A DNA stretch of 64,000 nt from an uncultured bacterium. GTDB lineage: Bacteria; Fidelibacterota; UBA2242. The stretch is from NCBI GenBank assembly GCA_964441235.1, contig CAYTUQ010000002.1, positions 1,705-65,704 of the forward strand, read 5' to 3'. The notes beneath the pieces were generated by a model. It was not told the origin of the DNA, did not search any database, and saw nothing but the letters and a program-made list of their open reading frames with translations. The translations under genes were made by a program, and so were the position numbers. Shown piece by piece: positions 11,521 to 62,638 of this stretch; position 1 is the first letter of the stretch, and every line of letters begins with the position of its first letter.

Positions 11521-14040
11521 TTGACTAAAAATATTCACTCTATCAATTATGATAGAGAGATTTTGCCTTTTGTGGAAAAGCCCGGTCGTTATGTAGGGCA
11601 TGAATTTAATATACAGCATAAAGACCTTTCAAAGGTAAAAGCATCTATTGTGCTTGGCTATCCTGACCTGTACGATGTCGGCATGTCTTATCATGGATTT
11701 CAGATACTTTATCATATTCTAAACAAAGACCGAGAAATAGCTGGAGAGCGTGTTTATGCTCCATGGCCGGATTTTGAAAAGCAACTCAGAAAGCATTCTG
11801 TTCCTTTATACAGCCTTGAGTCTTATACTTCTCTTCGCCAATTTGATATAGTAGGATTTACACTTCCTTATGAACTTACATTTACGAATATTCTGAATAT
11901 GCTGGATCTTTCCGGGATCCCGATATGGTCATACCAGCGGAAAGTAGATGATCCTTTTGTCATTGCAGGTGGGGTTGGGGCTTATAATCCGGAACCATTA
12001 GCTCCTTTTATTGACTTCTTCGTTATTGGAGATGCTGAGGAGGTAATAGTATCAATAGTGAAATTTGTTGCTGATAAACGAAGAAAAAAAGTGCCGCGCA
12101 TTGAGATTCTTAAAGAGCTGACTTACAGATTTCCCGGTATATACGTTCCTGCTCTTTATGAAATTGATATGGAAGAAAAGGACCTATTAAATCCAGCTCA
12201 TCCAATATTTGAGTATGTTCCTGAAAAAGTGAAATCTCTTAGAGTTTCAAAGCTTTTACCTGATTTTTACCCGGATTTTCCTATCATGCCGCTTGTTGAA
12301 ATTGTGCAGGATCGTCTGGTGATTGAGATTATGCGTGGATGTACACAAGGATGTAGGTTTTGCCAGGCAGGTATGATCTATAGACCTGTTAGGGAGCGAC
12401 CTTATAAAGACCTCGTAGACCAAATTCAGAAATCACTACCGAAAACTGGTTATAACGATATATCTTTGCTTTCTCTTTCTACATCAGATTATACAGGATT
12501 AGATAATCTTGCTAGCAAAGTTTTAGATAATTTGATTGCTCAGCATATATCAATTTCTCTCCCATCCCTTCGGCTTGATAGTTTTACTGAGAGAATAACA
12601 AAGTTGGCTAAGCAGACACGGAAGTCAGGATTAACATTTGCTCCTGAAGCTGGATCCTCAAGACTCAGGCATGTTATTAATAAAAATGTTACAGATGAGG
12701 ATTTGTTACAATCTACAGAAATAGCATTGCGGAATGGTTGGAGATTAATAAAACTCTACTATATGTTAGGTCTTCCAACAGAGACTGAAGCTGACATTGA
12801 TGCTGTTATTGAGCTTTCAGGAAAGGTTCTTCAAATTGGAAAGGGGAGACTTTCTCTCAATGTAACGCTTTCGACATTTATTCCTAAGCCGTTTACTCCC
12901 TTTCAATGGGAAGAACAAGATTCTGTGGAAAAGATCCAGAACAAACTGGACTTTGTAAAACCTGAACTCAGGTCGCTAAGAAAAATAAAAGTGATGGCTC
13001 GTGATCCTATATGCTCACAAATAGAAGGCGTGATTTCAAGGGGCGATAGAAGAATAGCAAATGTAATATTTGAGGCATGGAAACATGGTGCAAAGTTCGA
13101 TTCCTGGCATAAATATTTTTCAGCTGAAGTCTGGGACACTGCTTTTAAGAAAGCTGGCGTTGATTCTCAAAAATACATATCAGAAAGAAAAGAGGATAAA
13201 GCCTTATCATGGGATATTATAGACCCTTTAATAAGTAAAAAGTATCTTCTTAGTGAACGAGAAAAATCATATATGGGTGAGATAACACCTGACTGCCGCA
13301 ATGGATGTACCGGATGCGGTGTTTGTAAACCTAACATTTTGGATATGATAATTGTTGGCGGTAATAAGGGGACAACATCTGATAATCTTATTGAGAAAAA
13401 TGATAAAGAGGTTGAACCTGTAAAATACCGCCTGAAATATCGAAAAGGAAAGGAGATGAAATTTACATCACAGCTCGATATACTTCGAATATTTCAACAA
13501 GCTTTTAGGAGAGCTAAATTGAACCTTATCTATTCCCAGGGGTTTAATAAAAGGCCAAAGATTTCTACGGGTTTTTCACTACCTCTTGGATACACTTCAG
13601 AGGAAGAATATATCGAAATAACCTTAAAGAATAGAGTTCCTGAGCTATGTGAATGTATTAATGATAATCTTCCTAATGGTTTAAAAGTTATCAATTCTTT
13701 AGAAATACCATTAAAATCTCCTGCAATCTCCAGTTTAACTAATGGAATAGATTATGAAGTGACTTTTTATGCTGAATTGCCGCGAAATATTGATGATGCC
13801 ATAAATAATTTGTTGTTTAAGAAAGAACTTGCTATCAGCAGGAAGCGAGGTGAAGAAACAAAGCGAATTGATATTCGTAAATATATCAGTTCTATTTCAA
13901 GAAAAGATCGAAAATTACTTGTAAAAGTAAATGTAGAAGATGGGAAAACTGTAAGAATAATTGAGATACTTAAGAAATTAAATATAGAGAAATTTCCCAC
14001 TCAGGTACATAGATTAAAAACATATTTAAAAGAGTTATAA
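11521..14040 (+). CDS. B12-binding-domain radical SAM protein fused to a DUF2344-like domain (TIGR03960/TIGR03936 type)
   Basis: 839 aa, TTG start. MRGCTQGCRFCQAG is a CX3CX2C cluster. The C-terminal third (YRLKYRKGKEMKFTSQLDILRIFQQAFRRA) resembles DUF2344. Conserved position upstream of RNase G/E. Confidence 0.8.
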   Translation: MTKNIHSINYDREILPFVEKPGRYVGHEFNIQHKDLSKVKASIVLGYPDLYDVGMSYHGFQILYHILNKDREIAGERVYAPWPDFEKQLRKHSVPLYSLESYTSLRQFDIVGFTLPYELTFTNILNMLDLSGIPIWSYQRKVDDPFVIAGGVGAYNPEPLAPFIDFFVIGDAEEVIVSIVKFVADKRRKKVPRIEILKELTYRFPGIYVPALYEIDMEEKDLLNPAHPIFEYVPEKVKSLRVSKLLPDFYPDFPIMPLVEIVQDRLVIEIMRGCTQGCRFCQAGMIYRPVRERPYKDLVDQIQKSLPKTGYNDISLLSLSTSDYTGLDNLASKVLDNLIAQHISISLPSLRLDSFTERITKLAKQTRKSGLTFAPEAGSSRLRHVINKNVTDEDLLQSTEIALRNGWRLIKLYYMLGLPTETEADIDAVIELSGKVLQIGKGRLSLNVTLSTFIPKPFTPFQWEEQDSVEKIQNKLDFVKPELRSLRKIKVMARDPICSQIEGVISRGDRRIANVIFEAWKHGAKFDSWHKYFSAEVWDTAFKKAGVDSQKYISERKEDKALSWDIIDPLISKKYLLSEREKSYMGEITPDCRNGCTGCGVCKPNILDMIIVGGNKGTTSDNLIEKNDKEVEPVKYRLKYRKGKEMKFTSQLDILRIFQQAFRRAKLNLIYSQGFNKRPKISTGFSLPLGYTSEEEYIEITLKNRVPELCECINDNLPNGLKVINSLEIPLKSPAISSLTNGIDYEVTFYAELPRNIDDAINNLLFKKELAISRKRGEETKRIDIRKYISSISRKDRKLLVKVNVEDGKTVRIIEILKKLNIEKFPTQVHRLKTYLKEL

Positions 14041-22805: not shown

Positions 22806-22834
22806 TTGACTTCCAGGATTGAAAGATATATATT
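22806..22834 (+). promoter_or_regulatory. Candidate sigma70-type promoter for the riboswitch-btuB-like transcript
   Basis: TTGACT (22806-22811), 17-nt spacer, TATATT (22829-22834), about 25 nt upstream of the riboswitch core. The lineage's promoter consensus is unknown. Confidence 0.4.
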
Positions 22835-22857
22835 AAACCGTTACTTTAAAACGTGAT

Positions 22858-22998
22858 TAAAAATAGGGAAACATGTGAAAATCATGTGCAGCCCCGCTAC
22901 TGTAACCGGAGCGTTTTCTGCATTATGTCACGATCCAAATAAATAGGGATTGGAAGGCGCAGAGAGCTGGATGCCGGAAGCCAGGACACCTGTTTGAA
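22858..22998 (+). promoter_or_regulatory. Cobalamin (B12) riboswitch
   Basis: AATAGGGAAACATGTGAAAATCATGTGCAGCCCCGCTACTGTAACCGG (22862-22909) matches the conserved core (AATAGGGAA..GTGAAAATC..GCAGCCCCGCxACTGTAA). GCCGGAAGCCAGGACACCTG (22973-22992) matches the B12 box. Lies directly upstream of a TonB-dependent receptor. Confidence 0.8.
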
Positions 22999-23038
22999 AT
23001 TACTTTAATCCAAAATGCGCGGGCATTAGAGGGTTGAA

Positions 23039-25195
23039 TTGTTTAAAAAATTATTAAAATCTTCACACTACTACTTTTTCAAATCCACTCTTAAATTTTT
23101 CATAGGCAACTACTGCATTCATCATATTGAATATCCCTTGAGGAATACCTTAATTTTAGCATTAGTCGTATATCCCCTGCTTACACTTAATGCTGGAAAC
23201 CAGTGGAAAGGTATGGTTGTCGATTCTTGCAACAATTCCGTTTCCTATGTTTTTATTAATAATTCAACAAAAAATTTATGGACAATTACCGACGAAAACG
23301 GTGAATTCACACTTCCATTTTCCTTTGAAGAAAACGATTCAGTAAGATTTTCCCGCATTGGTTTCAAAACAAAAACAATCAGATTATCAGAAAAGAATAA
23401 CTTACTTTACATAATACTTACAACAAATCCAGTTTTGCTAAAAGAGATAAAAGTATCTGCTAAAAAAGACCAAATAGACATCAGGAACCACAAAATGGCT
23501 GAGATATTCAAATCACCTGAATTAGGAGATATTGAGCACCGACAATTACTTGCTGTCATTCCCGGACTTTCAATCCGATCCTACGGAGGACCAGCTGGAA
23601 TTACTACATTAAGTCTTGATGGAGGACCTTCTTCACAAACCAAAGTTATGGTTTCTGGATTTGATCTGACCAATGCCCAAAATGGTGAAATGGACCTGTC
23701 CCAACTTCCCGGTCCTTTTGTGGAGAACGTAAGTTATATACCCCAGGATGAAAATTTTTACGGCTCGGGTAGCAATGAAAGTACTATACATCTAAACCCC
23801 TGGTCTGGGAAAACCGGATTGTCACTAAGCACTGGAAGTTATGAACATAGTTCTATCCATGGCACTTTAAACCTCAACAAAAACCAGTGGTTTGGAAACT
23901 TTTTGATAGGGAAACGACATGATGATGGCAATTATCCTTTCAAATGGAGAAATGAAAGTTTCAAGCGTGAGAACAACTACTTTGACCAAAAATTCATATC
24001 AGCCCGGTTTAACACAGTTATTCAGAAACGCGCATTTCTTCGTTTTCTCTACTTATTGTCTAATCAGAACAGAGGTATAGCCGGACAGTCGTGGAATCCG
24101 AGCAAAAATGCTAGTAGAGATGATAAACTACAAATAATTGGTGTAAAATTCGGATGGACTAACAAAAAGGGACATGGTTATATCCAAACTATGTATAGAT
24201 ATTCATATGAGCAATACAAAAATCCAATGATTGCAGTAAATAGTTTTCATAGGCTAAGCACATGGCAGGTAATACTGAATCAAGAGAAAAAAATTAACGA
24301 AAAAATTGGGGTAAATTTGCTTTTTGAAACTAAAAAAGATGGGCTTAAAAGCAAAGATACACATAATCATTCTAGAATTAGTTATAGCACTGCAATTACA
24401 ATTCCTTATCATATTTCAAAAACGTTTAAATTTCAACCTGCTTACTGTTACGACATTTCGCCGAATCTATATCATGAAAGCACTTATGAACTGAAATTGC
24501 TGACGTCATTCAATTTTCTTTTTATCAAATCATTAACTATTCATCAAGGCAGATATTTTCGCTATCCTACCTTTAATGATCTCTATTGGATTCCTGGTGG
24601 GAACCCGAATTTGAAGCCGGAACATACCGACAATATAAGTCTTGATATCAAATGTCATTTAATCCAGGATTCCGATCTTGAAATTTTATTATTTTATAAA
24701 TCCAGTGATGATTTAATTCAATGGACACCAATTAGTTCTTATTGGCAGCCTAAAAATATTCAGCATGCAGTCAGGAATGGATATAAAATAATTTATCGCT
24801 GGAATAGTCCAAATTTACCATTAAAAGCTTTTGCTCATTATAGCAGCAATAGAACCAAAGACTTATCTCCAGGTGATTGCTATGGAAAACCGCTTCGATA
24901 TGCACCGGAACAAACCGCTGCAGTAGGTATAAACTGTGAGCCCGAACCGCTATCCTTTCATCTTCAAATACATCATACAAGCGAAAGAATATCTATGTAT
25001 TCCTGGCCAGAAGATGTGATATTATCGGAAGTAGTACTCATATTTACCAGCTGTGCATATACATGGAAAAGACCTTCTGGAGATATAATTATTGTTTTTG
25101 CCATGGATAACCTGGCAAATAAAAGATATGAAACAATCAAGGGTTATCCAGAACCAGGTAGAACATTTAGAATGACAATAAGCTATCAACATTAA
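23039..25195 (+). CDS. TonB-dependent receptor (BtuB-like, riboswitch-controlled) with N-terminal carboxypeptidase-regulatory-like domain
   Basis: 718 aa, TTG start. GMVVDSCNNSV...TDENGEFTL...RFSRIGFKT (CarbopepD_reg-like domain), plug region (IPGLSIRSYGGPAGITTLSLDGG), C-terminal barrel ending NLANKRYETIKGYPEPGRTFRMTISYQH. Confidence 0.8.
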   Translation: MFKKLLKSSHYYFFKSTLKFFIGNYCIHHIEYPLRNTLILALVVYPLLTLNAGNQWKGMVVDSCNNSVSYVFINNSTKNLWTITDENGEFTLPFSFEENDSVRFSRIGFKTKTIRLSEKNNLLYIILTTNPVLLKEIKVSAKKDQIDIRNHKMAEIFKSPELGDIEHRQLLAVIPGLSIRSYGGPAGITTLSLDGGPSSQTKVMVSGFDLTNAQNGEMDLSQLPGPFVENVSYIPQDENFYGSGSNESTIHLNPWSGKTGLSLSTGSYEHSSIHGTLNLNKNQWFGNFLIGKRHDDGNYPFKWRNESFKRENNYFDQKFISARFNTVIQKRAFLRFLYLLSNQNRGIAGQSWNPSKNASRDDKLQIIGVKFGWTNKKGHGYIQTMYRYSYEQYKNPMIAVNSFHRLSTWQVILNQEKKINEKIGVNLLFETKKDGLKSKDTHNHSRISYSTAITIPYHISKTFKFQPAYCYDISPNLYHESTYELKLLTSFNFLFIKSLTIHQGRYFRYPTFNDLYWIPGGNPNLKPEHTDNISLDIKCHLIQDSDLEILLFYKSSDDLIQWTPISSYWQPKNIQHAVRNGYKIIYRWNSPNLPLKAFAHYSSNRTKDLSPGDCYGKPLRYAPEQTAAVGINCEPEPLSFHLQIHHTSERISMYSWPEDVILSEVVLIFTSCAYTWKRPSGDIIIVFAMDNLANKRYETIKGYPEPGRTFRMTISYQH

Positions 25196-25210
25196 AAAGA
25201 GGAGAGAAAA

Positions 25211-26530
25211 ATGAACAAACTATTACTTGTGATTTTGCTAATCCCTGTAACCATTCTTGCACAAACCAATGTATTTATTCTGTGTGAGGGAAACATGACT
25301 CAATTAAATTCTTCACTATGGATTTTAAATGAAGACTTAAATCAAATTACAGGTCCTATTCATTGGGATTCCATTGCAAATCCTCTCGGAGACGTTGGCC
25401 AATCAATGACTATTTACAACAATAAGCTTTATATCATTATGAATAACTCACATACAATAGAAGTTGTGGATTTATCAGATAGCATTCATTATGAAATGAC
25501 TATCTCTGTTCTGGGAGCAAGTCCACGTGAAATGGAAGTTGTTGAAGGAATTGGATACTTAACATGCTGGAATTTACATGGTATTTTAGTTATAGATCTT
25601 GATAGTGGTACTTTACTAGATACTCTTGTTTTATCCGATGTTGGGCAACCAGAGGATATAGTATTCAGTGACGGCAAATTATATACCTCAATTAAACAGA
25701 ACTCAGACTGGTCGGCAGGTCATCAAATTTTTGAAATTTCTATAAATACTGAACCTACTATTACGGACACATTTGAGGTTATTGACGGTCCAGGTCAAAT
25801 GTTAATTCATGACGGATTTCTGTATGTTGTAAGTACTTACTTTGATGCTTCATATAATTCATATATTGGCATGTCAAGGATAGACCTTTTAACAGGTGAA
25901 GTAACCAAGAAAGATTACGGACAGACGTATATCTATGATTCTGACATAACTTTCTATAATGATAAAATATATTTTACTTATTCTACCGGTATTGTGCCAT
26001 TGTCCGATTCCCTGACGATTGAAGAATCAGGGCTAATTGGTAATCTCAGTGGCATTTATTCAATGGCATCTTACAATGGTTATATTTATTTCGGCTTAAG
26101 TGATTATATTGCACCTGATGATATTATAGTGTTAGACTCTTTGGGTAACCAAATAGGAAGTTTTACAGTTGGGGCATGTCCGGGTTCCTTTGCATTTTAT
26201 TCCTCCCAACAAAATTCAATAAAAGATAACTCAAGTAATATACAAACTGCATCTTTATACTCACTACATCAAAATTTTCCCAATCCGTTTAATTCTTATA
26301 CAACAATTCCATATTACATTGGGGGAAAAAGCCATATTACGATTTCAATCTATGATCTTTTAGGACATCACATCGTTGATCTTGTTAATACGAACCAGAA
26401 TAAGGGTAACAAATCAATATCGTGGAATGGTAAAGATAAATTTGGCAAAACAGTCCCGGGGGGAATCTATATCTACGAGTTAAAAACAGGGGGAGTCTTC
26501 TTAGCGAAAAAATTGGTTTATATCAAATAA
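25211..26530 (+). CDS. Secreted YncE-like/DUF5074-like beta-propeller protein with T9SS C-terminal sorting domain
   Basis: Signal peptide MNKLLLVILLIPVTILAQT. NVFILCEGNMTQLNSSLWILNED...LGDVGQSMTIYNNKLYIIMNNSHTIEVVD resembles YncE/DUF5074-type propellers. The last ~85 aa (FPNPFNSYTTIPYYI...ISIYDLLGHHIV...GIYIYELKTG...KKLVYIK) form a typical T9SS CTD. Confidence 0.75.
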   Translation: MNKLLLVILLIPVTILAQTNVFILCEGNMTQLNSSLWILNEDLNQITGPIHWDSIANPLGDVGQSMTIYNNKLYIIMNNSHTIEVVDLSDSIHYEMTISVLGASPREMEVVEGIGYLTCWNLHGILVIDLDSGTLLDTLVLSDVGQPEDIVFSDGKLYTSIKQNSDWSAGHQIFEISINTEPTITDTFEVIDGPGQMLIHDGFLYVVSTYFDASYNSYIGMSRIDLLTGEVTKKDYGQTYIYDSDITFYNDKIYFTYSTGIVPLSDSLTIEESGLIGNLSGIYSMASYNGYIYFGLSDYIAPDDIIVLDSLGNQIGSFTVGACPGSFAFYSSQQNSIKDNSSNIQTASLYSLHQNFPNPFNSYTTIPYYIGGKSHITISIYDLLGHHIVDLVNTNQNKGNKSISWNGKDKFGKTVPGGIYIYELKTGGVFLAKKLVYIK

Positions 26531-26717
26531 GCCGTCCCGTTTCAATATTTAAAATTGAAACTTATAAGGATATTAAAATTTCCCACAGAGGTTCCAATTG
26601 AGAATTTAGCAATACCACAATCATTTTTAAAAAGAAGCCCGGCAATTGTTTGTCAGACTTCTTCAGTATATTATCATAAACCTACAAATTTATTTTTTTA
26701 TTAATTTGGATAAAATT

Positions 26718-26812
26718 GTCCCAACGGGATTTCCATGAGATAAAAAGTCTGAATTAGCTCTCATTGCCTCGTCTCGAAGAGATCCCTTTGGGACAGAGGT
26801 CTCTTAGAGACG
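26718..26812. repeat. 95-bp GC-rich palindromic-module repeat, copy B (inverted relative to 16478-16572)
   Basis: GTCCCAACGGGATTTCCATGAGATAAAAAGTCTGAATTAGCTCTCATTGCCTCGTCTCGAAGAGATCCCTTTGGGACAGAGGTCTCTTAGAGACG is the reverse complement of copy A, with about 3 mismatches. Confidence 0.85.
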
Positions 26813-27090
26813 TTCCTGATTTATCAGAAGGAGCAATCTCCCGGGTCATAAGTACTTGTTTTTAATAGATTGCTCCGCCTGCCTGTCCTGCGGACACAGA
26901 CAGGGATACGCACAGGTAGACGTAGACAGGTCTCTCTGCTCCTCGTCTCGTGGAGAATCCTAAAGAACAAAGCAAAAATTCTGGTTACTAAAAACATGTA
27001 TTAAATCTTTCGAAATGTCAAAAGTGTCTCTGAATTTTAACAATTAAATTTGTATATTATATTTGTGAATAACATAAAGGAAAGTTATAA

Positions 27091-28636: not shown

Positions 28637-29369
28637 ATGAAGCTAATAATGAAAAGGATATTAACGCTGCTGATTTTTATGTTTTACACACTTTATTCCC
28701 ATGAAAAAATTGGGCTGGATTTTATATTCGCACATCCCAGAATCTGTTGGACTCCCCGGAAGAAATCAGATGGTCACCGGACGATTCTAAAATTGCATTC
28801 CTATGGAATAATTCAGGAGAACAATTCAGGGACATTCATCCGAGAGATAAAATGGTTACTTTATGACAATTTCCTTGCATTTAAAACTATCACCCACGAC
28901 TTGAAAAAGAGATACATCATTTTATCAAATACAAAATCAGGTGATCTGGGCACATTAATATTGCGAACACAGTAAAAAATGGATCGGCGACTTCGGAAAT
29001 AATCTCTTCTGGATTGAGAGCGGGGAAAAGATGTCATTTGGTGCCGGCAAAAATGGCTTTAACCATCTATACGCAATTCCAATCGAAAGCAGGCAGATTA
29101 TTGCTTTAACATGCGGTAAATGGAATGATATTGATTATAAAGTAGATGATTCCGGTCAGCATATTTTCTTTACCTCAACAAAAGATATCCCTAACGAACA
29201 CCACCTCTATTCTATTTCTATTACAAACGGAAAATCTGTTGATTTCATTTTCTATCCGTGTGAAAGCGATTGTATCAAATTAGATGGAAGCTATATAAAT
29301 TTATTCCAGAAGGTTTGTGAATATTTTGAAAGGAATTTAAAATGCTGCGGCGACCCACCGGAAAATTAG
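28637..29369 (+). pseudogene. Decayed N-terminal (beta-propeller) part of an S9/DPP-IV-like peptidase
   Basis: Homologous pieces lie in different frames. EEIRWSPDDSKIAFLWNNSGEQFRDIH is read in a frame other than ORF 28637-28975. ORF 29031-29369 encodes GFNHLYAIPIESRQIIALTCGKWNDIDYKVDDSGQHIFFTSTKDIPNEHHLYSISITNGK (DPPIV_N-like). No catalytic alpha/beta-hydrolase domain follows. Confidence 0.5.
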
Positions 29370-33490: not shown

Positions 33491-34216
33491 ATGGATGAAA
33501 AGAGTTGGATAAAAAATAGACCGGAGTATGAAAGACCTCGTGAAAAACTTTTGAAGTTTGGTTCTAAGAATCTTTCTAATTCGGAATTACTTGCTATCTT
33601 TCTTAGAATAGGTGTTAAAGACAAAAGTGCAATTCAACTTGCAGCAGAAATATTAGAAAAATTTGGTGGGATTAGAGGAATTTGTACTGCCAAAATAGAA
33701 GATTTACTTACAATAAAAGGATTGGGTATAGCAAAGATTGCTCAATTAAAAGCAACTTTAGAACTCGCTGAAAGGTATCTTAAAGAAGATGTTAAGCAAA
33801 AATCAATTGTAGAAAGCTCAAAGGAAGTTTTAAATTATCTTCATCATTCAATGCAAGATTTAGATCATGAATTAATGAAAGTAATCCTTTTGAATGGTCA
33901 AAATCAAATAATAAATATTGTAGATTTATTTAGAGGCTCTATAAGTTCATCAAGTGTTTATCCAAGGGAGATAATCAAATTGGCTCTTAAATATTCAGCT
34001 TTAGCAATTGTTATTGTTCATAATCATCCTTCTGGAATTTCAAAACCAAGCGAAGGTGATAAAAAACTTACAAAAGAAATTATTTTTGCATGTATTTCTA
34101 CAGGTATTAAAGTTCACGACCATATAATAATTGGCAATAAAAAGCATTATAGTTTTGCTGATGAGGGAATTATTGAAGTTTACGAAAAAGAATATGAAAA
34201 GAGGATGAAACTATGA
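33491..34216 (+). CDS. radC: RadC-family JAB-domain protein
   Basis: N-terminal PEYERPREKLLKFGSKNLSNSELLAIFLRIG, HhH region (IKGLGIAKIAQLKATLEL) and JAMM motif VHNHPSG...PSEGD. Confidence 0.9.
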   Translation: MDEKSWIKNRPEYERPREKLLKFGSKNLSNSELLAIFLRIGVKDKSAIQLAAEILEKFGGIRGICTAKIEDLLTIKGLGIAKIAQLKATLELAERYLKEDVKQKSIVESSKEVLNYLHHSMQDLDHELMKVILLNGQNQIINIVDLFRGSISSSSVYPREIIKLALKYSALAIVIVHNHPSGISKPSEGDKKLTKEIIFACISTGIKVHDHIIIGNKKHYSFADEGIIEVYEKEYEKRMKL

Positions 34217-36096
34217 GTCCAGTAAAATATCAAAGAGTGGATGAAATAGAAAAAAGGGGATATTTAAGAGATTATGCAACGGGAAAATGGGTTAGGTCAA
34301 GGCCCGAAGAAGGACCAAGACAAATATTTGAAAAAAGGTTAGTTGGAGAATATGGCTACGACAAAGGTCAAATTGAAATTGAGTTCTTAATACAAAAAGG
34401 AGCTAGAAAAATCGGTCCTGCTGATATAGTTGTTTTTCACGATTCAAAAAGAAAAACATTTGATAACATAAAAATAGTGGTTGAAACAAAGAGAAAAGAA
34501 AAAAATGATGGAAAAGATCAATTAAGATCTTATTCAATATCACCATCCCAAGAATTTGCAGTTTGGTTTAACGGAAAAGACATTCTATTTCTACAGGTTC
34601 TGAAAAAAGCACCATGGTTTAGAGAAATCCCAGATATTCCTAAAAAAGGTGAGACATTAGAAGATGTAGGGCTTTATTATAAGAAGGATTTAAAACCTGC
34701 AACAGAACTGAAAACTGTTTTTGAGATTTGTCACAATTATATTTATGCAAATGAGGGACTCTTGAAAGAGAAGGTATTTAATGAGGTGCTAAAACTAATT
34801 TTTATCAAAATGGCTGATGAAAAGAAATCAAATCCCAAATGTGAGTTTAGAATTACTGACAAAGAATTAAAAGAATTAGAAGAGGGCAAAGAAAATGCAT
34901 TTGTGAATAGGATTTTGAATCTTTTTAGTGAAGTAAAAACAAGATATAGTGATGTTTTTGAGAAAAATGAAAGAATATATCTAAGACCTTTAACAATTGC
35001 CTTTATTGTCAGTCAATTCCAAAAATATAGTTTGATTAACACTAAAGCAGATGTTAAAGGAACAGCATTTCAAACATTTGTTTATGCTCATCAAAGAGGA
35101 GAGAGAGGGGAGTTCTTTACACCACATCCAATTGTTGAATTAGCAGTAAATATGCTAAATCCAAAAGACAATGAAAGATTTATTGACCCTGCTTGTGGTT
35201 CTGGCGGTTTCCTTGTTAAAGGAATGAATTATATTAAAGAAAAATTTATTAAAGATAATCCTCATAGGATAACTGAAGCAGATAAATTTATAGGTGAATA
35301 TGCACATTCTTATGTTTCTGGAATTGATATTAATCCTGATTTGGCAAAAGTTGCAAAGATGCACATGATTTTGTATGATGATGGACACACGGGAATTTTT
35401 TCAGCGAATACTTTAGAGAGTTTTGATAATTTGGTAAAAACTGCACAAGAAATGGGAGTTCCAAGAGCAATACAACCAAGACCAAATACTTTTCAAGTTT
35501 TGATGACCAATCCACCTTTTGGGACAAAGGGAAAAGTAACGAATAAAAGAATCTTGGAAAACTTTGAACTTGGCCATAAATGGAAAAACGATAAAGAAAT
35601 AGGAGGATGGATAAAAACAAATAAAATCTTGGATGGGCAAGTTCCAGATATTTTATTCATTGAGAGATGTTTGCGGTTATTGGACAATCATGGTAGAATG
35701 GCAATTGTTTTGCCTGACGGTGATTTAACAAATCAAAATACAGAGCATATAAGAGAATTTATTAAACAAAAAGCAAGATTACTGGCAGTAGTTTCTATGC
35801 CTATTGGAACATTTATGCATGCTGGAGTTAATCCAAAAGCAAGTGTATTGTTTTTACAAAAATTGGATGAAGAAAAATTAGAAGAGTTGAATAGAAAAGA
35901 TTATCCCATCTTCATGGCCATTGCTGAGAGGATAGGCTATGATTTAACAAGTAAAACACCTAAAATACTTTACAAAAGAGATGAGAAGGGAGAGATAATT
36001 AAATATAAAGAAGGAAAACCAATTATTGAATCTGATATTCCAGAAATAATAGAAGCGTTTAACGGATTCAAAAGGAAATATAACTTGAGGTTTTAA
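34213..36096 (+). CDS. hsdM: Type I-like N6-adenine DNA methyltransferase (HsdM-like) with N-terminal PD-(D/E)xK-like (HsdR_N-type) domain
   Basis: Motif I IDPACGSGGFLV, motif IV LMTNPPFGTKG. The N-terminal ~130 aa carries GPADIVVF...IKIVVETKRK (D...E-x-K arrangement). Start overlaps the radC stop (ATGA). Confidence 0.85.
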   Translation: MSPVKYQRVDEIEKRGYLRDYATGKWVRSRPEEGPRQIFEKRLVGEYGYDKGQIEIEFLIQKGARKIGPADIVVFHDSKRKTFDNIKIVVETKRKEKNDGKDQLRSYSISPSQEFAVWFNGKDILFLQVLKKAPWFREIPDIPKKGETLEDVGLYYKKDLKPATELKTVFEICHNYIYANEGLLKEKVFNEVLKLIFIKMADEKKSNPKCEFRITDKELKELEEGKENAFVNRILNLFSEVKTRYSDVFEKNERIYLRPLTIAFIVSQFQKYSLINTKADVKGTAFQTFVYAHQRGERGEFFTPHPIVELAVNMLNPKDNERFIDPACGSGGFLVKGMNYIKEKFIKDNPHRITEADKFIGEYAHSYVSGIDINPDLAKVAKMHMILYDDGHTGIFSANTLESFDNLVKTAQEMGVPRAIQPRPNTFQVLMTNPPFGTKGKVTNKRILENFELGHKWKNDKEIGGWIKTNKILDGQVPDILFIERCLRLLDNHGRMAIVLPDGDLTNQNTEHIREFIKQKARLLAVVSMPIGTFMHAGVNPKASVLFLQKLDEEKLEELNRKDYPIFMAIAERIGYDLTSKTPKILYKRDEKGEIIKYKEGKPIIESDIPEIIEAFNGFKRKYNLRF

Positions 36097-37034
36097 TGAT
36101 GGAAAAAGAAAAAATGACTTTTGAGGATTTTTGGAATCATGAAACAGAATATTTTAAAGAAACGGCAAAAGAAAGTTTTAAAAAAAATAAACAGGGAGTT
36201 GAATATTTTATAGAATATCTCGATAATTATATAGATCTATTTGGCATAAACAAGTATTACCAAAAAGATGAAATAACAAATTCTATTTCTGCTATGTTTC
36301 TCTTTTACTCCTTTAAACAATTGCGATGGGTTAATCATGAGATTCTATCAGGTGCTTATTTTGAGGCAATCAGAGATTTAAGATTTGCATTTGAAACTAT
36401 TGTTTGGGCACATTTTTTAGATGAGTGGATTAACGAAAAAACAAAAGAATACCTAAAAGTAAGTATAGGAGCAGGAATATCTTTAAAATATGAGATTTTA
36501 AAGTTAAGAGATGAGATATATGATGTCAAAGGTTATAGAAAAAAGAAAAATGAAAGAGAGAAAATAGTTAAGGAAAATGTTGGCAAATTCATAAAAAAGC
36601 ATGCCCAAGATTTTACAAACGAAGAAACGTGGAAATATAAAGAACTTTATTTTGAAATCTTGAAGAACTTGGGAGTTGGATTTACTGGAAAAAATGGATT
36701 AATTGCTAAACTTCCCTTAGAAGAGGAAGATGAAAAGAAGTTGGACAAACTTTATTCAGAATTATCAAAATATATCCATCCATCAAACAGAATAATAAAA
36801 CCGTTTTATGAAGACGATATTGGTTTAATCTTTAATTTTTGCTATAATAAAATATTATTTAATAGCTGTATGAGGTTTCTTGTAGATGTTATGGACTTAT
36901 TTTATGCCATTCTTTACGTCCATTTTGAGAAACTTAGAGAAGTGATTAAAGAAAAAATTGTAGATTTTTGTAAGGTTAATTTTAATATGGAATTTCCGAT
37001 AACTGAAAAATTAATACGGGATGACCTAGTATGA
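36096..37034 (+). CDS. Hypothetical all-alpha protein inserted between hsdM and hsdS
   Basis: 312 aa. Start overlaps the hsdM stop (TAATG) and the stop overlaps the hsdS start (ATGA). No catalytic motif recognised. RDLRFAFETIVWAHFL and LSKYIHPSN faintly recall HEPN/AbiV-like helical proteins. Confidence 0.6.
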   Translation: MMEKEKMTFEDFWNHETEYFKETAKESFKKNKQGVEYFIEYLDNYIDLFGINKYYQKDEITNSISAMFLFYSFKQLRWVNHEILSGAYFEAIRDLRFAFETIVWAHFLDEWINEKTKEYLKVSIGAGISLKYEILKLRDEIYDVKGYRKKKNEREKIVKENVGKFIKKHAQDFTNEETWKYKELYFEILKNLGVGFTGKNGLIAKLPLEEEDEKKLDKLYSELSKYIHPSNRIIKPFYEDDIGLIFNFCYNKILFNSCMRFLVDVMDLFYAILYVHFEKLREVIKEKIVDFCKVNFNMEFPITEKLIRDDLV

Positions 37035-39439
37035 TAATTTCAGAAGCAAAATTTTCAGAAGCTTATACCAAACTAAGATTTGATGCTGAATATTTTAAAA
37101 CAGAATTCATTGAAACACGATATAGATTAGAAAAAATTAATGCATCCAAACTTACTTCTATTGCTGAAATATCAAAATTAAGGAGGGATCCTACAAAAGA
37201 ATCGGATAAAGAATTTATATACATTGATATAAGCAATATTGATACATCTGTTGCTGATGTCAGTACACAGAAAATAATAGGTTATAAAGCACCAACAAGA
37301 GCGAGAAAATTAGTTCAAACAGGAGATGTTATAGTATCTACTGTACGACCGAATAGAAATGCCGTCGCAATTATACCAAAAGAATTAGATAATAGCGTTT
37401 GTTCTACAGGCTTTTGTGTTTTAAAACCGACGGAAGTAAATTTGCATTATTTGTTTGTTTTCTTAAAAACAAAATATGCAATAAATCAACTAGTAAGAGA
37501 AACTATGGCTTCTATGTATCCCGCAGTTAGTGAAGATCAAATTAAAAAGATATTGGTGTTTTTACCATCTTTTGAATTCCAGTTTCACGTAGAAAAACTC
37601 GTCAAAGAAGCATTTTCAAAACGAAAACTTGCTGATGAAAAATACAAACAAGCAAAACAACTTTTAGAAAAAGAATTAGGACTTGATAAATTAAAATTAA
37701 AAGAAGAAAAAACATTTGAAGCAAAATCATCAGAACTATTTGGAAGTAGAAGATTTGATTCTGAGTACTACAAGCCGAAGTGCAAACAAATCATAAGGTT
37801 TCTTAAAAATTCTGGGTTTGAAGTAAAGAAATTAAAAGAGATTGTAAAAATTTCAAATAAGAAAATTGACCCAACAAAGGAGCCAACCAAAAGGTTTAGA
37901 TATGTTCCAATAGCAAAGATAAATTCAAATGGAGAAATTGATGAGTGGGATGAATTTAATGGTTGGCAGGCACCAAGCAGGGCAAGAATGCTTATTAAAA
38001 AAGGGGATGTTTTAGTCTCATCATTAGGTGGTTCGCTTAACAAAATAGCATTAGTTCCTGAAGAATTAAATAATTCAATTGCTACAACAGGAACCTTTGT
38101 CATCAATTCTGAAAACTTTTATAGTGAATTCTTATTTTTATTATTCAGAACAGAACTAATCAAATTGCAGTTGGAGCGGAAAACAGCAGGTGCAATAATG
38201 ACTGCTGTTCCTAAAACAACTTTTGGAAATTTACTAATTCCAATTATTCCAAAACAAAAGCAAGAAAATATTGCAAAATTAATAAACCAATCTTTTACTT
38301 TGAGAAAAGAAGCAAAACAACTTTTAGAAGAGGCAAAAGAAAAGGTGGAAAGTATGATAGAAAATCCTTTAGAAATCTCTGAAACCCAACCCGTTCTCCG
38401 TAGTCCTGATAAAATTGGGACGAAGGGTGAACCTGAGATTATTATCCCTTTTCCTATTCCTTCAAAATTAATAAGCCTTAAACCGCCTGTCAAAGTAAAA
38501 TATAAAGATTACCAAATGCTTGATGGTTCAATAAAGAAATTGGTTCAACAAATAGGAGATGGTTCAATCATTAAAAGATTTGAAAAAACACCAATACCTA
38601 AAAGTAAAATAGATGTAGTTTGTCCTCATTTTCTTGAATTAAAATGGGCAACAGGATGTCCTTATGATTGTTCCTGGTGCTATCTGAAAGGAACTTTTAG
38701 ATTCTTGCCGTATAAAGCGAAACCACATATTAAGGATTTTGATAAGATAGAAAAACATACAAAGACATTTTTGGAATATGTTCAAACTCCTGAAGTATTA
38801 AATACAGGTGAGCTGGCAGACTCACTAATGCTTGAAGTAAAGAATAAATCATTTGTTAAGTTTATTGTTCCACTTTTTGAAAACCAAAATAAGCATAAGA
38901 TTCTCTTTTTGAGTAAATCAAACAAAATAGAAAATCTTTTATTACTTAATACACATCGTCAGGTTATAGTAAGTTTTAGTCTTAATGCTATTCCTGTGGC
39001 ACAAAGATGGGAAAAGAAAGCACCTTCAGTTGAAGACCGCATAAAAGCAGCAGGGATTCTATACAAACAACGATTTGAAGTAAGGATAAGGATAGACCCA
39101 ATGATCCCTGTGGAAAACTGGGAGCAACTTTATACTGATTTAATAGACCGCATATTTAATTCGTTTATACCTGAAAGAATTACTTTAGGTTCTCTTAGAG
39201 GATTACAGAGTACTATCAATGGAACATCAGATAAGTCCTGGGTAAAATATCTATCTGAACGCTCAAACTGGGGAAGAAAAATAGATATTAATTTAAGGCT
39301 TGCTATGTACAAAACAATTATCTCTTATTTAAATGAAAAGTATAAATATAATAAGGTCGCTCTTTGCAAAGAAACTTTGGCAATTTGGGATATACTAAAT
39401 ACGAATTATAAAAATATAAAATGTAATTGTGTGTGGTAG
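37031..39439 (+). CDS. hsdS: Type I restriction-modification specificity subunit (two TRDs) fused to a C-terminal radical-SAM-type (CX3CX2C) domain
   Basis: - aa 1-~440: two TRDs (RFDAEYF...STGFCVLKP...; RFDSEYY...TTGTFVINS...) separated and followed by the conserved S-subunit coiled-coil spacers (EKYKQAKQLLEKEL; EAKQLLEEAKEKVESMIEN).
- aa ~440-500: Pro-rich linker.
- aa ~500-802: VVCPHFLELKWATGCPYDCSWCYLKG (CX3CX2C), then an alternating beta/alpha pattern (ILFLSKSN, VIVSFSLN, RIRIDPMIP) reminiscent of SPL/COG1533-type radical SAM enzymes. Confidence 0.75.
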   Translation: MIISEAKFSEAYTKLRFDAEYFKTEFIETRYRLEKINASKLTSIAEISKLRRDPTKESDKEFIYIDISNIDTSVADVSTQKIIGYKAPTRARKLVQTGDVIVSTVRPNRNAVAIIPKELDNSVCSTGFCVLKPTEVNLHYLFVFLKTKYAINQLVRETMASMYPAVSEDQIKKILVFLPSFEFQFHVEKLVKEAFSKRKLADEKYKQAKQLLEKELGLDKLKLKEEKTFEAKSSELFGSRRFDSEYYKPKCKQIIRFLKNSGFEVKKLKEIVKISNKKIDPTKEPTKRFRYVPIAKINSNGEIDEWDEFNGWQAPSRARMLIKKGDVLVSSLGGSLNKIALVPEELNNSIATTGTFVINSENFYSEFLFLLFRTELIKLQLERKTAGAIMTAVPKTTFGNLLIPIIPKQKQENIAKLINQSFTLRKEAKQLLEEAKEKVESMIENPLEISETQPVLRSPDKIGTKGEPEIIIPFPIPSKLISLKPPVKVKYKDYQMLDGSIKKLVQQIGDGSIIKRFEKTPIPKSKIDVVCPHFLELKWATGCPYDCSWCYLKGTFRFLPYKAKPHIKDFDKIEKHTKTFLEYVQTPEVLNTGELADSLMLEVKNKSFVKFIVPLFENQNKHKILFLSKSNKIENLLLLNTHRQVIVSFSLNAIPVAQRWEKKAPSVEDRIKAAGILYKQRFEVRIRIDPMIPVENWEQLYTDLIDRIFNSFIPERITLGSLRGLQSTINGTSDKSWVKYLSERSNWGRKIDINLRLAMYKTIISYLNEKYKYNKVALCKETLAIWDILNTNYKNIKCNCVW

Positions 39440-39451
39440 AAAGGAAAGATT

Positions 39452-40549
39452 ATGTCTATTAAAGAAACAATATGGAAGATTGAACTGCACACACAGGCAA
39501 AGCATGAAATACTAAAGCGGTATCTTCAAGCGTGGCTTCCAATAATGAGTACTGTTAGTGGGCGTATTTTGTATATTGATGGCTTTGCAGGTCCAGGAAA
39601 GTATTTAGACGAAAATAATCAGCCAACTATTGATGGCTCTCCACTTGTGGCTATGAATGCAGCAATAAAGCACAAGTTACCGCTAAAGGCGGAGATAGTA
39701 TTTCTTTTAATTGAAGCAGACCCTAAAAGATTTGACTATCTTAAAAATTTGCTTTCAGAAATAACTTTTGCAGATAGTATGAAATATAAAGTAGTATGTA
39801 GTAAATTTGATGAAACTCTTACATCTATTCTAAACGACTTTGATGAGCAGAAGAAACAATTAGCTCCAACTTTTGCATTCATTGACCCATTTGGATATTC
39901 CGATACACCTCTTGCAGTTGTTAAACGAATAATGGAGAGCCCAAAGTGTGAGGTCCTTATTACATTTATGTATAGTTTTATAAAAAGAGCTATTGTCAAA
40001 CTCGACCAAGAAGATCATCTAGACATTCTTTTTGGTACCCAAGAATGGAGAAAAATTCGAGATATTGGTTATCCTTCAAAGAAACGAGAATTTGCCCAGC
40101 AACTTTATAAAAAACAATTGGAAAAGGAAGCCAATATAAAATATGTGCGTTTTTTTGAGATGATTAATAAGTTCAATCAAACTGAATATTTTTTATTTTT
40201 CGGAACTAATAGTCTTGAAGGACTTAGATATATGAATTCGTCAATGTGGAAAGTTGATCCGAGTGGAACATTTCAATTTTCTGATAGAACAAATCCTAAT
40301 CAAACAGTGCTCTTTACTCTAGAGCCTAACTATAACTTACTTAAAAGATTAATTGTCAGAGAATATAAAGGTAAAACGGTCTCAGTTGAAGAAGTTGATG
40401 AATTTGTATTAGTGGCTGGTTTCACTCATTTCAAAAAGAATATTTTGGAACCTATGGAAAGAGCAAAACCTGCTCAGATAGAAGTGATTAAGAGTAATAG
40501 GAAGAGAAGATATACTTATCCACCAAGAACTATAATTAAATTTTTGTAA
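39452..40549 (+). CDS. TcmP-like (three-Cys-motif partner protein family) protein, possible RlmJ-like methyltransferase fold
   Basis: 365 aa, 12 nt after the fusion gene and preceded by AAAGGAAAG. HTQAKHEILKRYLQAWLPIM, RILYIDGFAGPGKY, DGSPLVAMNA and FAFIDPFGYSD match my recollection of TcmP (TIGR04474) N-terminal halves. The same motif order occurs in RlmJ-type methyltransferases. Confidence 0.5.
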   Translation: MSIKETIWKIELHTQAKHEILKRYLQAWLPIMSTVSGRILYIDGFAGPGKYLDENNQPTIDGSPLVAMNAAIKHKLPLKAEIVFLLIEADPKRFDYLKNLLSEITFADSMKYKVVCSKFDETLTSILNDFDEQKKQLAPTFAFIDPFGYSDTPLAVVKRIMESPKCEVLITFMYSFIKRAIVKLDQEDHLDILFGTQEWRKIRDIGYPSKKREFAQQLYKKQLEKEANIKYVRFFEMINKFNQTEYFLFFGTNSLEGLRYMNSSMWKVDPSGTFQFSDRTNPNQTVLFTLEPNYNLLKRLIVREYKGKTVSVEEVDEFVLVAGFTHFKKNILEPMERAKPAQIEVIKSNRKRRYTYPPRTIIKFL

Positions 40550-62582: not shown

Positions 62583-62638
62583 TTTATAAATTTGGTTCTT
62601 TTTTTGTTCTGGTTTGTCCAAGTTAGGTGCACAACACT

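Follow-up and report, generated by a model that had tools for sequence, protein, structure and literature searches.

A predicted corrinoid-capturing BtuG-family propeller, probably exported through the type IX secretion system, in a riboswitch operon of Marinimicrobia

How would a protein that resembles the surface lid of a vitamin transporter be brought to the cell surface if it has no site for lipid attachment and ends in a domain of the type IX secretion system (T9SS)? The question is raised by a 439-aa protein of Marinimicrobia/Fidelibacterota, encoded in the window (the whole stretch of 64,000 nucleotides that was analysed). According to current descriptions, BtuG is a surface lipoprotein specific to Bacteroidetes; it binds B12 so tightly that gut Bacteroides out-compete their rivals and the host. 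Among 313 gut genomes its homologues were found in Bacteroidetes only (Wexler 2018, PMC6143338), and the BtuG proteins of B. thetaiotaomicron are surface lipoprotein lids of BtuB (PMC6143338; Abellon-Ruiz 2023, PMC10404256). We propose that the protein studied here is probably a corrinoid-binding propeller of the BtuG family, which shares a two-gene riboswitch operon with BtuB and is exported via the T9SS. The elements of the locus are the following:

22806..22834, + strand: promoter-like site TTGACT-17-TATATT from a consensus scan (10/12 matches), ending at the riboswitch start
22832..23011, + strand: cobalamin riboswitch aptamer RF00174 (92.1 bits vs a gathering score of 31.5, E 1.6e-21)
23012..23137, + strand: putative leader and expression platform, from the aptamer to the probable transporter start, read from the sequence
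23039..25195, + strand: BtuB-like TonB-dependent transporter (Pfam: CarboxypepD_reg-like domain, Plug, TonB_dep_Rec_b-barrel)
25199..25206, + strand: Shine-Dalgarno GAGGAGAG, 4 nt 5' of the propeller ATG, read from the sequence
25211..26530, + strand: whole gene of the BtuG-family propeller with T9SS C-terminal domain, 439 aa plus stop

The ATG of the propeller gene lies 15 nt past the TAA (25193-25195) of the transporter ORF 23039..25195, and the covariance-model match of RF00174 is full-length (model positions 1-189). These ORF coordinates, together with the riboswitch score, bear out the preliminary description, which had placed the gene 15 nt after a btuB-like gene in a B12-riboswitch operon. 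The matches to RF00174, DUF5074 and TIGR04183 are far beyond chance. The promoter-like site is weak evidence, because such sites are no commoner in the region than in shuffled sequence.

The real start of the transporter is probably the TTG at 23138 rather than the listed TTG at 23039, and this start yields the signal peptide MRNTLILALVVYPLLTLNA. Only four PDB entries matched the transporter at E<=1e-5, all of them BtuB2, BtuB1 or BtuB3 of B. thetaiotaomicron (1e-13 to 7e-10). With the E. coli-type BtuB model TIGR01779 the score was far under the equivalog cut-off (76.4 bits vs 599.7), and with NF007926 the equivalog level was not reached either (43.8 bits, cut-off 836). Judged by these comparisons of its sequence, the transporter is a Bacteroides-type BtuB and not an enterobacterial-type one.

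The 439-aa protein is made up of the following parts:

25211..25261, + strand: signal peptide, residues 1-17, of the signal-peptidase-I type, with predicted cleavage between ILA and QT (inspection of the translation)
25265..26203, + strand: seven-bladed beta-propeller, residues 19-331, the predicted corrinoid-binding domain (AlphaFold2, Foldseek, profile)
26204..26275, + strand: low-complexity linker, residues 332-355, predicted to be disordered (pLDDT <50 at residues 334-348)
26276..26527, + strand: T9SS type A C-terminal sorting domain, residues 356-439 (FPNPFN, GIYIY, C-terminal KKLVYIK)

The motifs NVFILCEGN, LGDVGQSM and NNSHTIEVVD, from which the preliminary description had read a YncE/DUF5074-like propeller, are all found in the translation. 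DUF5074 (Pfam PF16819) matches at residues 21-80, its 30.0 bits exceeding the gathering score of 27.2. A phmmer search of the PDB retrieved BtuG1 (8ptf/8ptd, E 6e-11; 8blw_B, 3e-10) and, at about 1e-5, BtuG2/3; the family profile found BtuG2 in the PDB with E 1.2e-27 over residues 16-328, so that the whole propeller was covered. That the PDB entries matched are indeed BtuG was confirmed from PMC10404256 and from the preprint 10.1101/2024.02.16.580637. The AlphaFold2 model of the 439-aa protein reached a pLDDT of 84.4, with 79-96 in the propeller block except for a loop near residues 51-60 (58). In a Foldseek search of the PDB, the 16 top matches of this model were all BtuG1/2/3 (E 3e-16 to 6e-14), and against 15 propeller-only BtuG chains the model gave TM values of 0.75-0.85 with an rmsd of 2.6-3.8 A. 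The structural comparison with BtuG that had been suggested for this protein thus agrees with the sequence searches, and the combined evidence of sequence and predicted structure makes this protein a genuine homologue of BtuG.

To BtuG1, BtuG2 and BtuG3 of B. thetaiotaomicron (reference structures PDB 8BLW, 8BMX/8BMY/3DSM and 8OKV/8P97, respectively) the protein is similar in its seven-bladed fold (TM up to 0.85), in DUF5074 and in most of the corrinoid-contacting residues, as well as in its context: the gene comes right after a Bacteroides-type btuB, with a cobalamin riboswitch ahead. It differs from them in its host, which belongs to Marinimicrobia/Fidelibacterota, and its sequence identity to BtuG is about 20%. 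The BtuG2 contact set compared comprised 14 residues (E55, G56, F58, Q93, N107, S131, R133, W149, W194, S195, Q219, W272, Y316 and Y335). By residue mapping, approximately ten of them are conserved in the 439-aa protein, at E26, G27, Q64, N78, S104, R106, W120, W167, S168 and Y299, whereas the positions at M29, G193, I276 and the W272 loop are not. Phe58, which in BtuG2 stacks on the lower ligand, is replaced by Met and Gln219 by Gly, and the loop of Trp272 is shorter than in BtuG2.

Within the family, E55, G56, N107, R133 and W149 (BtuG2 numbering) are invariant in 80/80 members. Q93 is retained in 77 of the 80 and W194 in 75; position 58 is F or Y in 77/80, position 335 is Y or F in all 80, and S195 is mostly S/T. 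Q219 and Y316 are not conserved across the 80 members. The BtuG-like capture role suggested earlier for this protein gains from these comparisons. The protein is more than propeller-like, namely a BtuG homologue in which most of the predicted ligand-binding residues are conserved.

Regarding export, BtuG1-3 are lipobox-bearing surface lipoprotein lids, whereas the 439-aa protein combines a signal-peptidase-I signal with a C-terminal linker and a T9SS domain. The signal peptide MNKLLLVILLIPVTILA, followed by QT, was called by eye; a small residue and then Gln stand at the cleavage site in 28 of the 48 family members of the signal-peptidase-I type. Inspection of the translation revealed no lipobox cysteine in the 439-aa protein: the first Cys is C25, which sits in the first propeller strand and is Ser/Asn in Bacteroides BtuG. 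In the family, a median of 23 residues separates the propeller end from the PNPF motif. The sorting domain matches TIGR04183 with 33.1 bits (cut-off 23) at the extreme C-terminus, residues 356-436, and is borderline for Pfam PF18962, where its 26.8 bits are 0.2 bits under the gathering score of 27; in the AlphaFold2 model it forms six beta-strands (residues 364-437) with a pLDDT of 88-91 over most of its length. A signal peptide and a T9SS sorting domain, as claimed in the preliminary description, are borne out by these results. Furthermore, C-terminal domains that are ~32-49% identical sit on proteins with unrelated domains, such as subtilases, a 5'-nucleotidase and LRR proteins (P0107-P0120), and a C-terminal domain common to many unrelated proteins of a lineage is the mark of a functioning sorting signal. 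Within the window, a family-specific HMM of this domain found no second protein carrying it. No open literature on T9SS in Marinimicrobia/Fidelibacter was found.

Another aspect to consider is the distribution of the tethers among relatives. The comparison covered 80 related loci, each of them from a metagenome-assembled genome of Marinimicrobia/FCB. A btuB-like gene is directly upstream of the propeller gene in 78/78 loci having upstream sequence, and RF00174 is upstream of the transporter in 50/50 loci tested; the order riboswitch-btuB-propeller, whose conservation in relatives had been put forward as a check, is therefore kept in every testable related locus. With lipobox classes set by hand from the distance between Cys and the CEG motif, and NGC and IGC counted as lipoboxes, 45 of the 82 family genes encode a signal peptide plus T9SS domain, 32 a lipobox plus linker without tail, three a signal peptide plus dockerin and two odd forms. 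These two could stem from chimeric assembly, since all relatives are metagenome-assembled. By the same distance, the hydrophobic-core Cys of L003, L063 and L067 was excluded as a lipobox. Lipobox and T9SS domain are almost never found together (Fisher's exact test, p 1.8e-20). The tether types are interleaved in an unbootstrapped neighbour-joining tree, on which at least ten switches are needed, and N- and C-terminal modules have been reassorted among close relatives. In addition, the lipobox and T9SS types have their convergent neighbouring genes in common.

In the lipid form, the lipobox Cys is followed by D/E-rich residues and a linker of 11-17 residues, and the protein ends at the propeller end. 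Marinimicrobia lipoprotein-type BtuG proteins of this kind (L038, L041, L051, L064; P0060, P0061) have propellers 42-50% identical to that of the 439-aa protein, and match it in the riboswitch-btuB-btuG operon, in neighbour genes and in the invariant ligand residues; they differ from it in the lipobox Cys, the D/E-rich stretch, the 11-17-residue linker and the lack of a T9SS tail. The 439-aa protein, on the other hand, has no N-terminal linker, the element serving as the hinge of BtuB2G2. The different anchoring route conceived earlier for this protein is strengthened by the alternation, among orthologues in the same slot, of lipobox plus linker and T9SS domain, almost never both. It seems likely to us that in this lineage the means of surface tethering is a swappable module, being an N-terminal lipid, a T9SS domain or a dockerin.

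In the mechanism that we propose, plentiful B12 would shut off the btuB-propeller operon through the cobalamin riboswitch. When expressed, the propeller protein would pass the inner membrane via Sec and be cut by signal peptidase I; the T9SS would then recognise the C-terminal domain, move the protein over the outer membrane and have the domain removed there. Outside, the central pocket of the propeller would bind corrinoids with high affinity and deliver them to BtuB; docking on the barrel as a lid, as Bacteroides BtuG does, is the likeliest way. The tether could be an N-terminal lipid with a linker of 11-17 residues, a C-terminal linker of ~15-20 residues with a T9SS domain, or a C-terminal dockerin. 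Attachment of the A-LPS type to secreted cargo is firmly known from only a few Bacteroidota.

Instead of staying as a resident lid, the propeller might be released by the T9SS to the medium or to vesicles, acting as a diffusible, haemophore-like corrinoid scavenger that returns loaded to BtuB. Some T9SS type A cargo is indeed released in soluble form. Riboswitch-controlled propellers with a T9SS domain and without an adjacent btuB also exist: in three marine loci (L082, L084, L085) the riboswitch is followed by such a stand-alone gene, and in Flavobacterium ardleyense (L081) a cobalamin riboswitch of 101 bits lies directly 5' of a gene for DUF5074 plus a T9SS domain. Moreover, an N-terminal hinge linker is lacking in the signal-peptidase-I forms, whose mature N-terminus is only 2-5 residues ahead of strand 1. 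Nevertheless, in Marinimicrobia the gene is always within the btuB operon, and its alternation with lipid-anchored and dockerin-tethered forms argues that selection acts on retention at the surface. In open sea water, moreover, a diffusible binder of picomolar or tighter affinity, like that of BtuG, would soon be lost. We consider release unlikely for this protein, and a surface-tethered lid the better reading.

It is a good deal less probable that the C-terminal domain has no role in secretion in this organism and that the protein stays in the periplasm, binding B12 or chaperoning it. No T9SS machinery genes were detected among the 17 annotated ORFs of the window (Pfam and NCBIfam, the latter including ten large ORFs), and in L019, one of the close relatives, a signal peptide is present without any tether. 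In opposition to this, the sorting domain has intact motifs in 45 orthologues, the same domain is present on many unrelated proteins of the lineage, and its loss coincides exactly with the gain of a lipobox. Finally, a YncE/YVTN-type propeller that has nothing to do with corrinoids and lies beside the transporter by chance is very improbable: the family profile does match YncE (3vgz, E 3e-4) and an archaeal S-layer YVTN propeller (1l0q, E 9e-15) weakly, but BtuG matches at least 12 orders of magnitude better, the invariant family columns are ligand-contact residues, and the riboswitch linkage occurs in 50/50 loci and in three other gene arrangements.

The proposed surface-tethered BtuG homologue has parallels in lids such as SusD, XusB and HmuY, surface-exposed binding proteins encoded beside their transporters (10.1101/2023.03.17.533168). 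The lids of TonB-dependent transporters of Bacteroidota described in that preprint are all lipoproteins, none of them reported with a T9SS or dockerin tether. In the literature we found no paper linking BtuG to T9SS and nothing relevant on DUF5074, in keeping with the view of the preliminary description that this would be an undescribed variation on corrinoid piracy. It is conceivable, although we hold it with some doubt, that such lids in general need not be lipoproteins, with BtuG as a T9SS cargo in Marinimicrobia and some Flavobacteriia and a dockerin-tethered minority. If so, type IX secretion would gain vitamin acquisition as a new physiological function, and evolution would have freely swapped surface-attachment modules on one nutrient-capture domain. 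The stand-alone riboswitch-controlled versions may then be released scavengers of B12 in sea water, the vitamin counterpart of haemophores. Apparently, a B12-capture module of the BtuG type is widespread in Marinimicrobia (SAR406/Fidelibacterota), and it would have at least three interchangeable routes to the cell surface. Corrinoid piracy and type IX secretion are thereby linked, which suggests a T9SS function beyond enzymes and adhesins, in which the cargo could be under direct control of a vitamin riboswitch. The tether variants also form a natural experiment, in which one can ask what the lid of a transporter requires of its tether.

The F. ardleyense locus provides a cultivable test organism, in a genus whose T9SS is well studied. 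Its protein WP_318640089.1, annotated only as 'DUF5074 domain-containing protein', resembles the 439-aa protein in having a signal peptide, a BtuG-like propeller and a T9SS type A domain (TIGR04183, 53.8 bits). It differs in that no btuB is adjacent, the next gene encoding a second T9SS cargo of 325 aa, for which there was no Pfam or PDB match beyond the sorting domain. Some ligand positions differ as well (F58 to Ala, W194 to Phe, S195 to Gly). A transporter at 3394-5463 of L081 was considered as partner of the propeller and rejected, as it belongs to a different unit; a Fur-family gene is located ~670 nt upstream of that transporter, on the opposite strand. As a separate observation, locus L083 carries gldH.

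The ORF listing and the Rfam search bore out the arrangement reported in the preliminary description, namely a 439-aa reading frame that starts 15 nt past the stop codon of a transporter gene and lies behind a B12 riboswitch, which was the sole Rfam match across the 64-kb window:

22832-23011, + strand, cobalamin riboswitch aptamer (RF00174; 92.1 bits, gathering score 31.5)
23039..25195, + strand, TonB-dependent transporter ORF, 718 codons
25199-25206, ribosome-binding site GAGGAGAG before the propeller ORF
25211..26530, + strand, BtuG-like propeller ORF, 439 aa
start 27091, class V aminotransferase gene, 560 nt beyond the propeller gene

Because of this last gap, the unit is considered to comprise riboswitch, transporter and propeller. 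The gap itself presents a G+C-rich stretch with several hairpins (26740-26970; MFE -73.2 kcal/mol, z -2.07) that had no Rfam match at gathering score; the hairpins of the gap include 24-nt inverted arms at 26717-26740 and 26772-26795. The transporter contains, according to Pfam, a carboxypeptidase-regulatory-like N-terminus, a plug and a barrel. In the PDB, BtuB2, BtuB1 and BtuB3 of Bacteroides thetaiotaomicron were the only relatives with E<=1e-5, and against E. coli-type BtuB models the transporter scores far under the equivalog cut-offs. The listed start, TTG 23039, is just 28 nt past the aptamer and is probably too early; an alternative TTG at 23138 yields a proper signal peptide, MRNTLILALVVYPLLTLNA, with 127 nt then available for an expression platform. 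In the related locus L003, the transporter homologue starts 109 nt past its own aptamer.

The signal peptide, DUF5074-like N-terminus and T9SS C-terminal domain claimed for the 439-aa protein were all recovered. DUF5074 occupies residues 21-80 (Pfam, 30.0 bits, gathering score 27.2) and the sorting domain residues 356-436 (PF18962, 26.8 bits, 0.2 under the gathering score; NCBIfam TIGR04183, 33.1 bits, cut-off 23). By inspection, the N-terminus (MNKLLLVILLIPVTILA, then QTNVF after the predicted cleavage site) is of the signal-peptidase-I type, without a lipobox. A small residue followed by Gln is present at the predicted cleavage site in 28 of 48 signal-peptidase-I type family members, as Ala-Gln in the window protein (25259-25264). 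For Bacteroidetes secreted proteins a "Q-rule" (N-terminal pyroglutamate) has been described, which these sites in Marinimicrobia members recall.

In a PDB sequence search the top ranks were occupied only by BtuG proteins: 8ptf and 8ptd (BtuG1, E 6e-11), 8blw_B (BtuG1 in complex with BtuB1, E 3e-10, residues 19-359) and the BtuG2 and BtuG3 entries (E ~1e-5), identified as such in Abellon-Ruiz et al. 2023 (PMC10404256) and in the preprint 10.1101/2024.02.16.580637. Furthermore, a family profile of 30 homologues (alignment A1) matched BtuG2 over the whole propeller with E 1.2e-27. The same alignment was the input for an AlphaFold2 model (mean pLDDT 84.4, pTM 0.71), in which the propeller spans residues 19-331, a disordered linker follows at 334-348 and residues 364-437 form a beta-sandwich. 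When this model was compared with the PDB by Foldseek, the 16 best matches were all BtuG3, BtuG2 or BtuG1 chains (E 3e-16 to 6e-14), in agreement with the BtuG-like role proposed beforehand; the 15 propeller-only chains gave target-normalised TM values of 0.75-0.85 and rmsd of 2.6-3.8 A over ~330 columns. The next match was an archaeal YVTN propeller (E 1.5e-11).

The cobalamin-contacting residues of BtuG2 that the two structural papers name were mapped by aligning BtuG2 with 82 members of the family in MAFFT.

Counterparts of BtuG2 contact residues (BtuG2; window protein; family)
E55; E26; 80/80
G56; G27; 80/80
Q93; Q64; 77/80
N107; N78; 80/80
S131; S104; S or G in 77/80
R133 (our count; Arg135 in the preprint); R106; 80/80
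W149; W120; 80/80, alignment one column off
W194; W167; 75/80
S195; S168; mostly S or T
Y335; Y299; Y or F in 80/80
F58; M29; aromatic in 77/80, Met in this protein
Q219; G193; Gly throughout
Y316; I276; aliphatic
W272; shorter loop; not comparable

The conserved contact positions fall on those columns that are invariant in the family alignment, which strongly argues, at the sequence level, that the window protein would be a corrinoid binder. Elsewhere in the window, 11521-14040 encodes a B12-binding radical SAM protein of the TIGR03960 family (709 bits) fused to TIGR03936; the product is likely a B12-dependent enzyme, consistent with a need for corrinoid import in the same genome.

Homologues in a large protein collection came nearly all from Candidatus Marinimicrobia metagenome-assembled genomes, and 418 relatives came from a scan that took a single genome for each GTDB species. 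Among the best 80 of these, labelled Neomarinimicrobiota, Fidelibacterota, FCB group or uncultured bacterium (one, Lentisphaeria), a BtuB-like ORF in the same orientation immediately precedes the propeller gene in all 78 loci with upstream sequence, the window included, with an overlap or a gap of <=60 nt in 75 of them. In addition, RF00174 was located just 5' of the transporter gene in 50/50 loci examined. Lack of co-conservation with riboswitch and btuB was a ground for refutation in the preliminary description; the outcome clearly favours its idea of a corrinoid-capture protein. No third co-directional gene was conserved among the compared loci; the conserved neighbours are convergent genes, common to loci of both tether types. 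In chromosome OY781066.1 (L068:2508-7260), two tandem propeller genes follow btuB, the second encoding a 1134-aa protein in which PKD domains precede the propeller and a T9SS domain closes the chain.

The module predicted to hold the propeller at the surface varies among orthologues.

Tether classes in 82 family genes, manually corrected
Signal-peptidase-I signal and T9SS domain; 45/82; 427-449 aa
Lipobox Cys and 11-17-residue linker, ending directly after the propeller; 32/82; 338-362 aa
Signal-peptidase-I signal and C-terminal dockerin type I; 3/82; PF00404 26-29 bits, gathering score 22.9
Lipobox and T9SS domain; 1/82; L008
Signal-peptidase-I signal without tether; 1/82; L019

In line with the non-lipid anchoring route suggested in the preliminary description, a T9SS sorting domain replaces the lipobox in the window protein and in the other members of the first class. 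Absence of a lipobox is associated with presence of a C-terminal tether (Fisher p 1.8e-20). On the neighbour-joining tree of the propellers, the tether type must have changed at least 10 times, a number that is soft because the tree is unbootstrapped. The tether is a swappable module, interchangeable among orthologues. In the lipoprotein forms, the stretch after the Cys is D/E-rich and lacks K/R at +1 to +3, a pattern like the surface-export signal of Bacteroidota. In the T9SS forms, a median of 23 residues separates the propeller end from the PNPF motif; part of this stretch already belongs to the start of the sorting domain, so that the linker itself measures roughly 15-20 residues, slightly longer than the N-terminal one. 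Going by the order of strands in the model, the N-terminal strand 19-25 probably closes the last blade beside the C-terminal strands 303-331, in which case both tethers would exit the propeller at about the same place.

The dockerin-ended propellers lie behind btuB (L067:5956-7131, L070:5989-7164, L073:5962-7137), with the riboswitch confirmed at L067, and imply a cohesin-bearing surface partner in those Marinimicrobia; further examples are proteins P0106, P0141, P0164, P0168 and P0190. Five close relatives (L004, L008, L018, L019, L022) have propeller genes that are mosaic in modules: the signal peptide of L019 matches the L004 one with 100% identity, but its core is 90% identical to that of L008, which in turn combines a lipoprotein N-terminus as in L018 (82%) with a T9SS domain resembling that of L004. 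Either module reassortment by recombination between alleles or chimeric metagenome assembly could produce this pattern.

The protein is thus a BtuG homologue with a matching predicted fold and most of the ligand residues, under riboswitch control and in an operon with btuB. In the route that we propose, it would be exported by Sec, would transit the T9SS with removal of the sorting domain, and would be retained at the surface, where it would capture corrinoids and hand them over to BtuB as a lid. The BtuB2-BtuG2 interface of B. thetaiotaomicron covers 3463 A2 with ~40 hydrogen bonds and survives SDS; by analogy, a propeller delivered by a non-lipid route could plausibly still dock on BtuB. No T9SS machinery genes were found among the annotated window ORFs, and no literature on them was located for Marinimicrobia. 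The same sorting domain on proteins of these genomes whose other domains are unrelated (subtilases, a 5'-nucleotidase, PKD proteins) gives indirect support for a T9SS.

A tail-less profile searched against 1.84 billion representative proteins retrieved 8370 clusters at E<=1e-3, 3680 of them also passing E<=1e-10; the full-length proteins of the best 150 clusters were ~81 lipoprotein-type, ~25 T9SS-type and ~5 dockerin-type. One T9SS-type cluster includes WP_318640089.1 of Flavobacterium ardleyense, a "DUF5074 domain-containing protein" (TIGR04183, 53.8 bits). In the complete genome (CP137891.1, L081:7619-10279), a cobalamin riboswitch (101 bits) lies ~170 nt upstream of its gene, which has no adjoining transporter gene and is followed by a 325-aa T9SS cargo. 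The N-terminal ~250 residues of this cargo had no Pfam or PDB match, and it may be a new B12-related surface protein. The same pair was found at L083:116-3480, preceded by a 355-aa DUF5074 protein without T9SS domain, with gldH on the same contig. Three marine loci (L082:6811-8287, L084:126-2058, L085:192-2122) carry stand-alone T9SS-type BtuG-like genes of 428 and 576 aa, with the riboswitch directly upstream and no adjoining transporter gene. Therefore, B12-controlled, T9SS-sorted BtuG relatives exist in at least three gene arrangements, one of them from a cultivable Bacteroidota genus. The stand-alone arrangements favour the main rival explanation, in which the T9SS forms leave the cell as soluble B12 scavengers; against release in Marinimicrobia stand the strict btuB linkage and the alternation of the T9SS domain with lipid and dockerin tethers, which favour surface retention.

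Both the B12-capture module and its pairing with BtuB were known already. Among 313 gut genomes, Wexler et al. 2018 (PMC6143338) found BtuG solely in Bacteroidetes, with a lipobox conserved in nearly all homologues, and BtuG figures as a surface lipoprotein in subsequent structural papers and reviews. Our full-text literature search found nothing linking BtuG, DUF5074 or cobalamin/BtuB to T9SS, and public annotation names such proteins only "T9SS type A sorting domain-containing protein" or "DUF5074 domain-containing protein". As far as this search showed, the presence in this phylum, the export and tether route and the modular tether swapping had not been described.

Apart from this locus, the window harbors a defence island (34213-40549 and 62627-64000) whose MADS-like genes are those for a MAD2 methyltransferase (476 bits, below cut-off), a MAD5-like S subunit that carries a fused spore-photoproduct-lyase-like domain, and TcmP (219 bits); at the window end lies a BrxC-like P-loop protein. 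There are also two tandem 112-aa ORFs (28637-28975 and 29031-29369). The sole match of the second is to part of the DPP IV N-terminal domain (PF00930, profile positions 256-320), and it may be the remnant of a broken peptidase gene.
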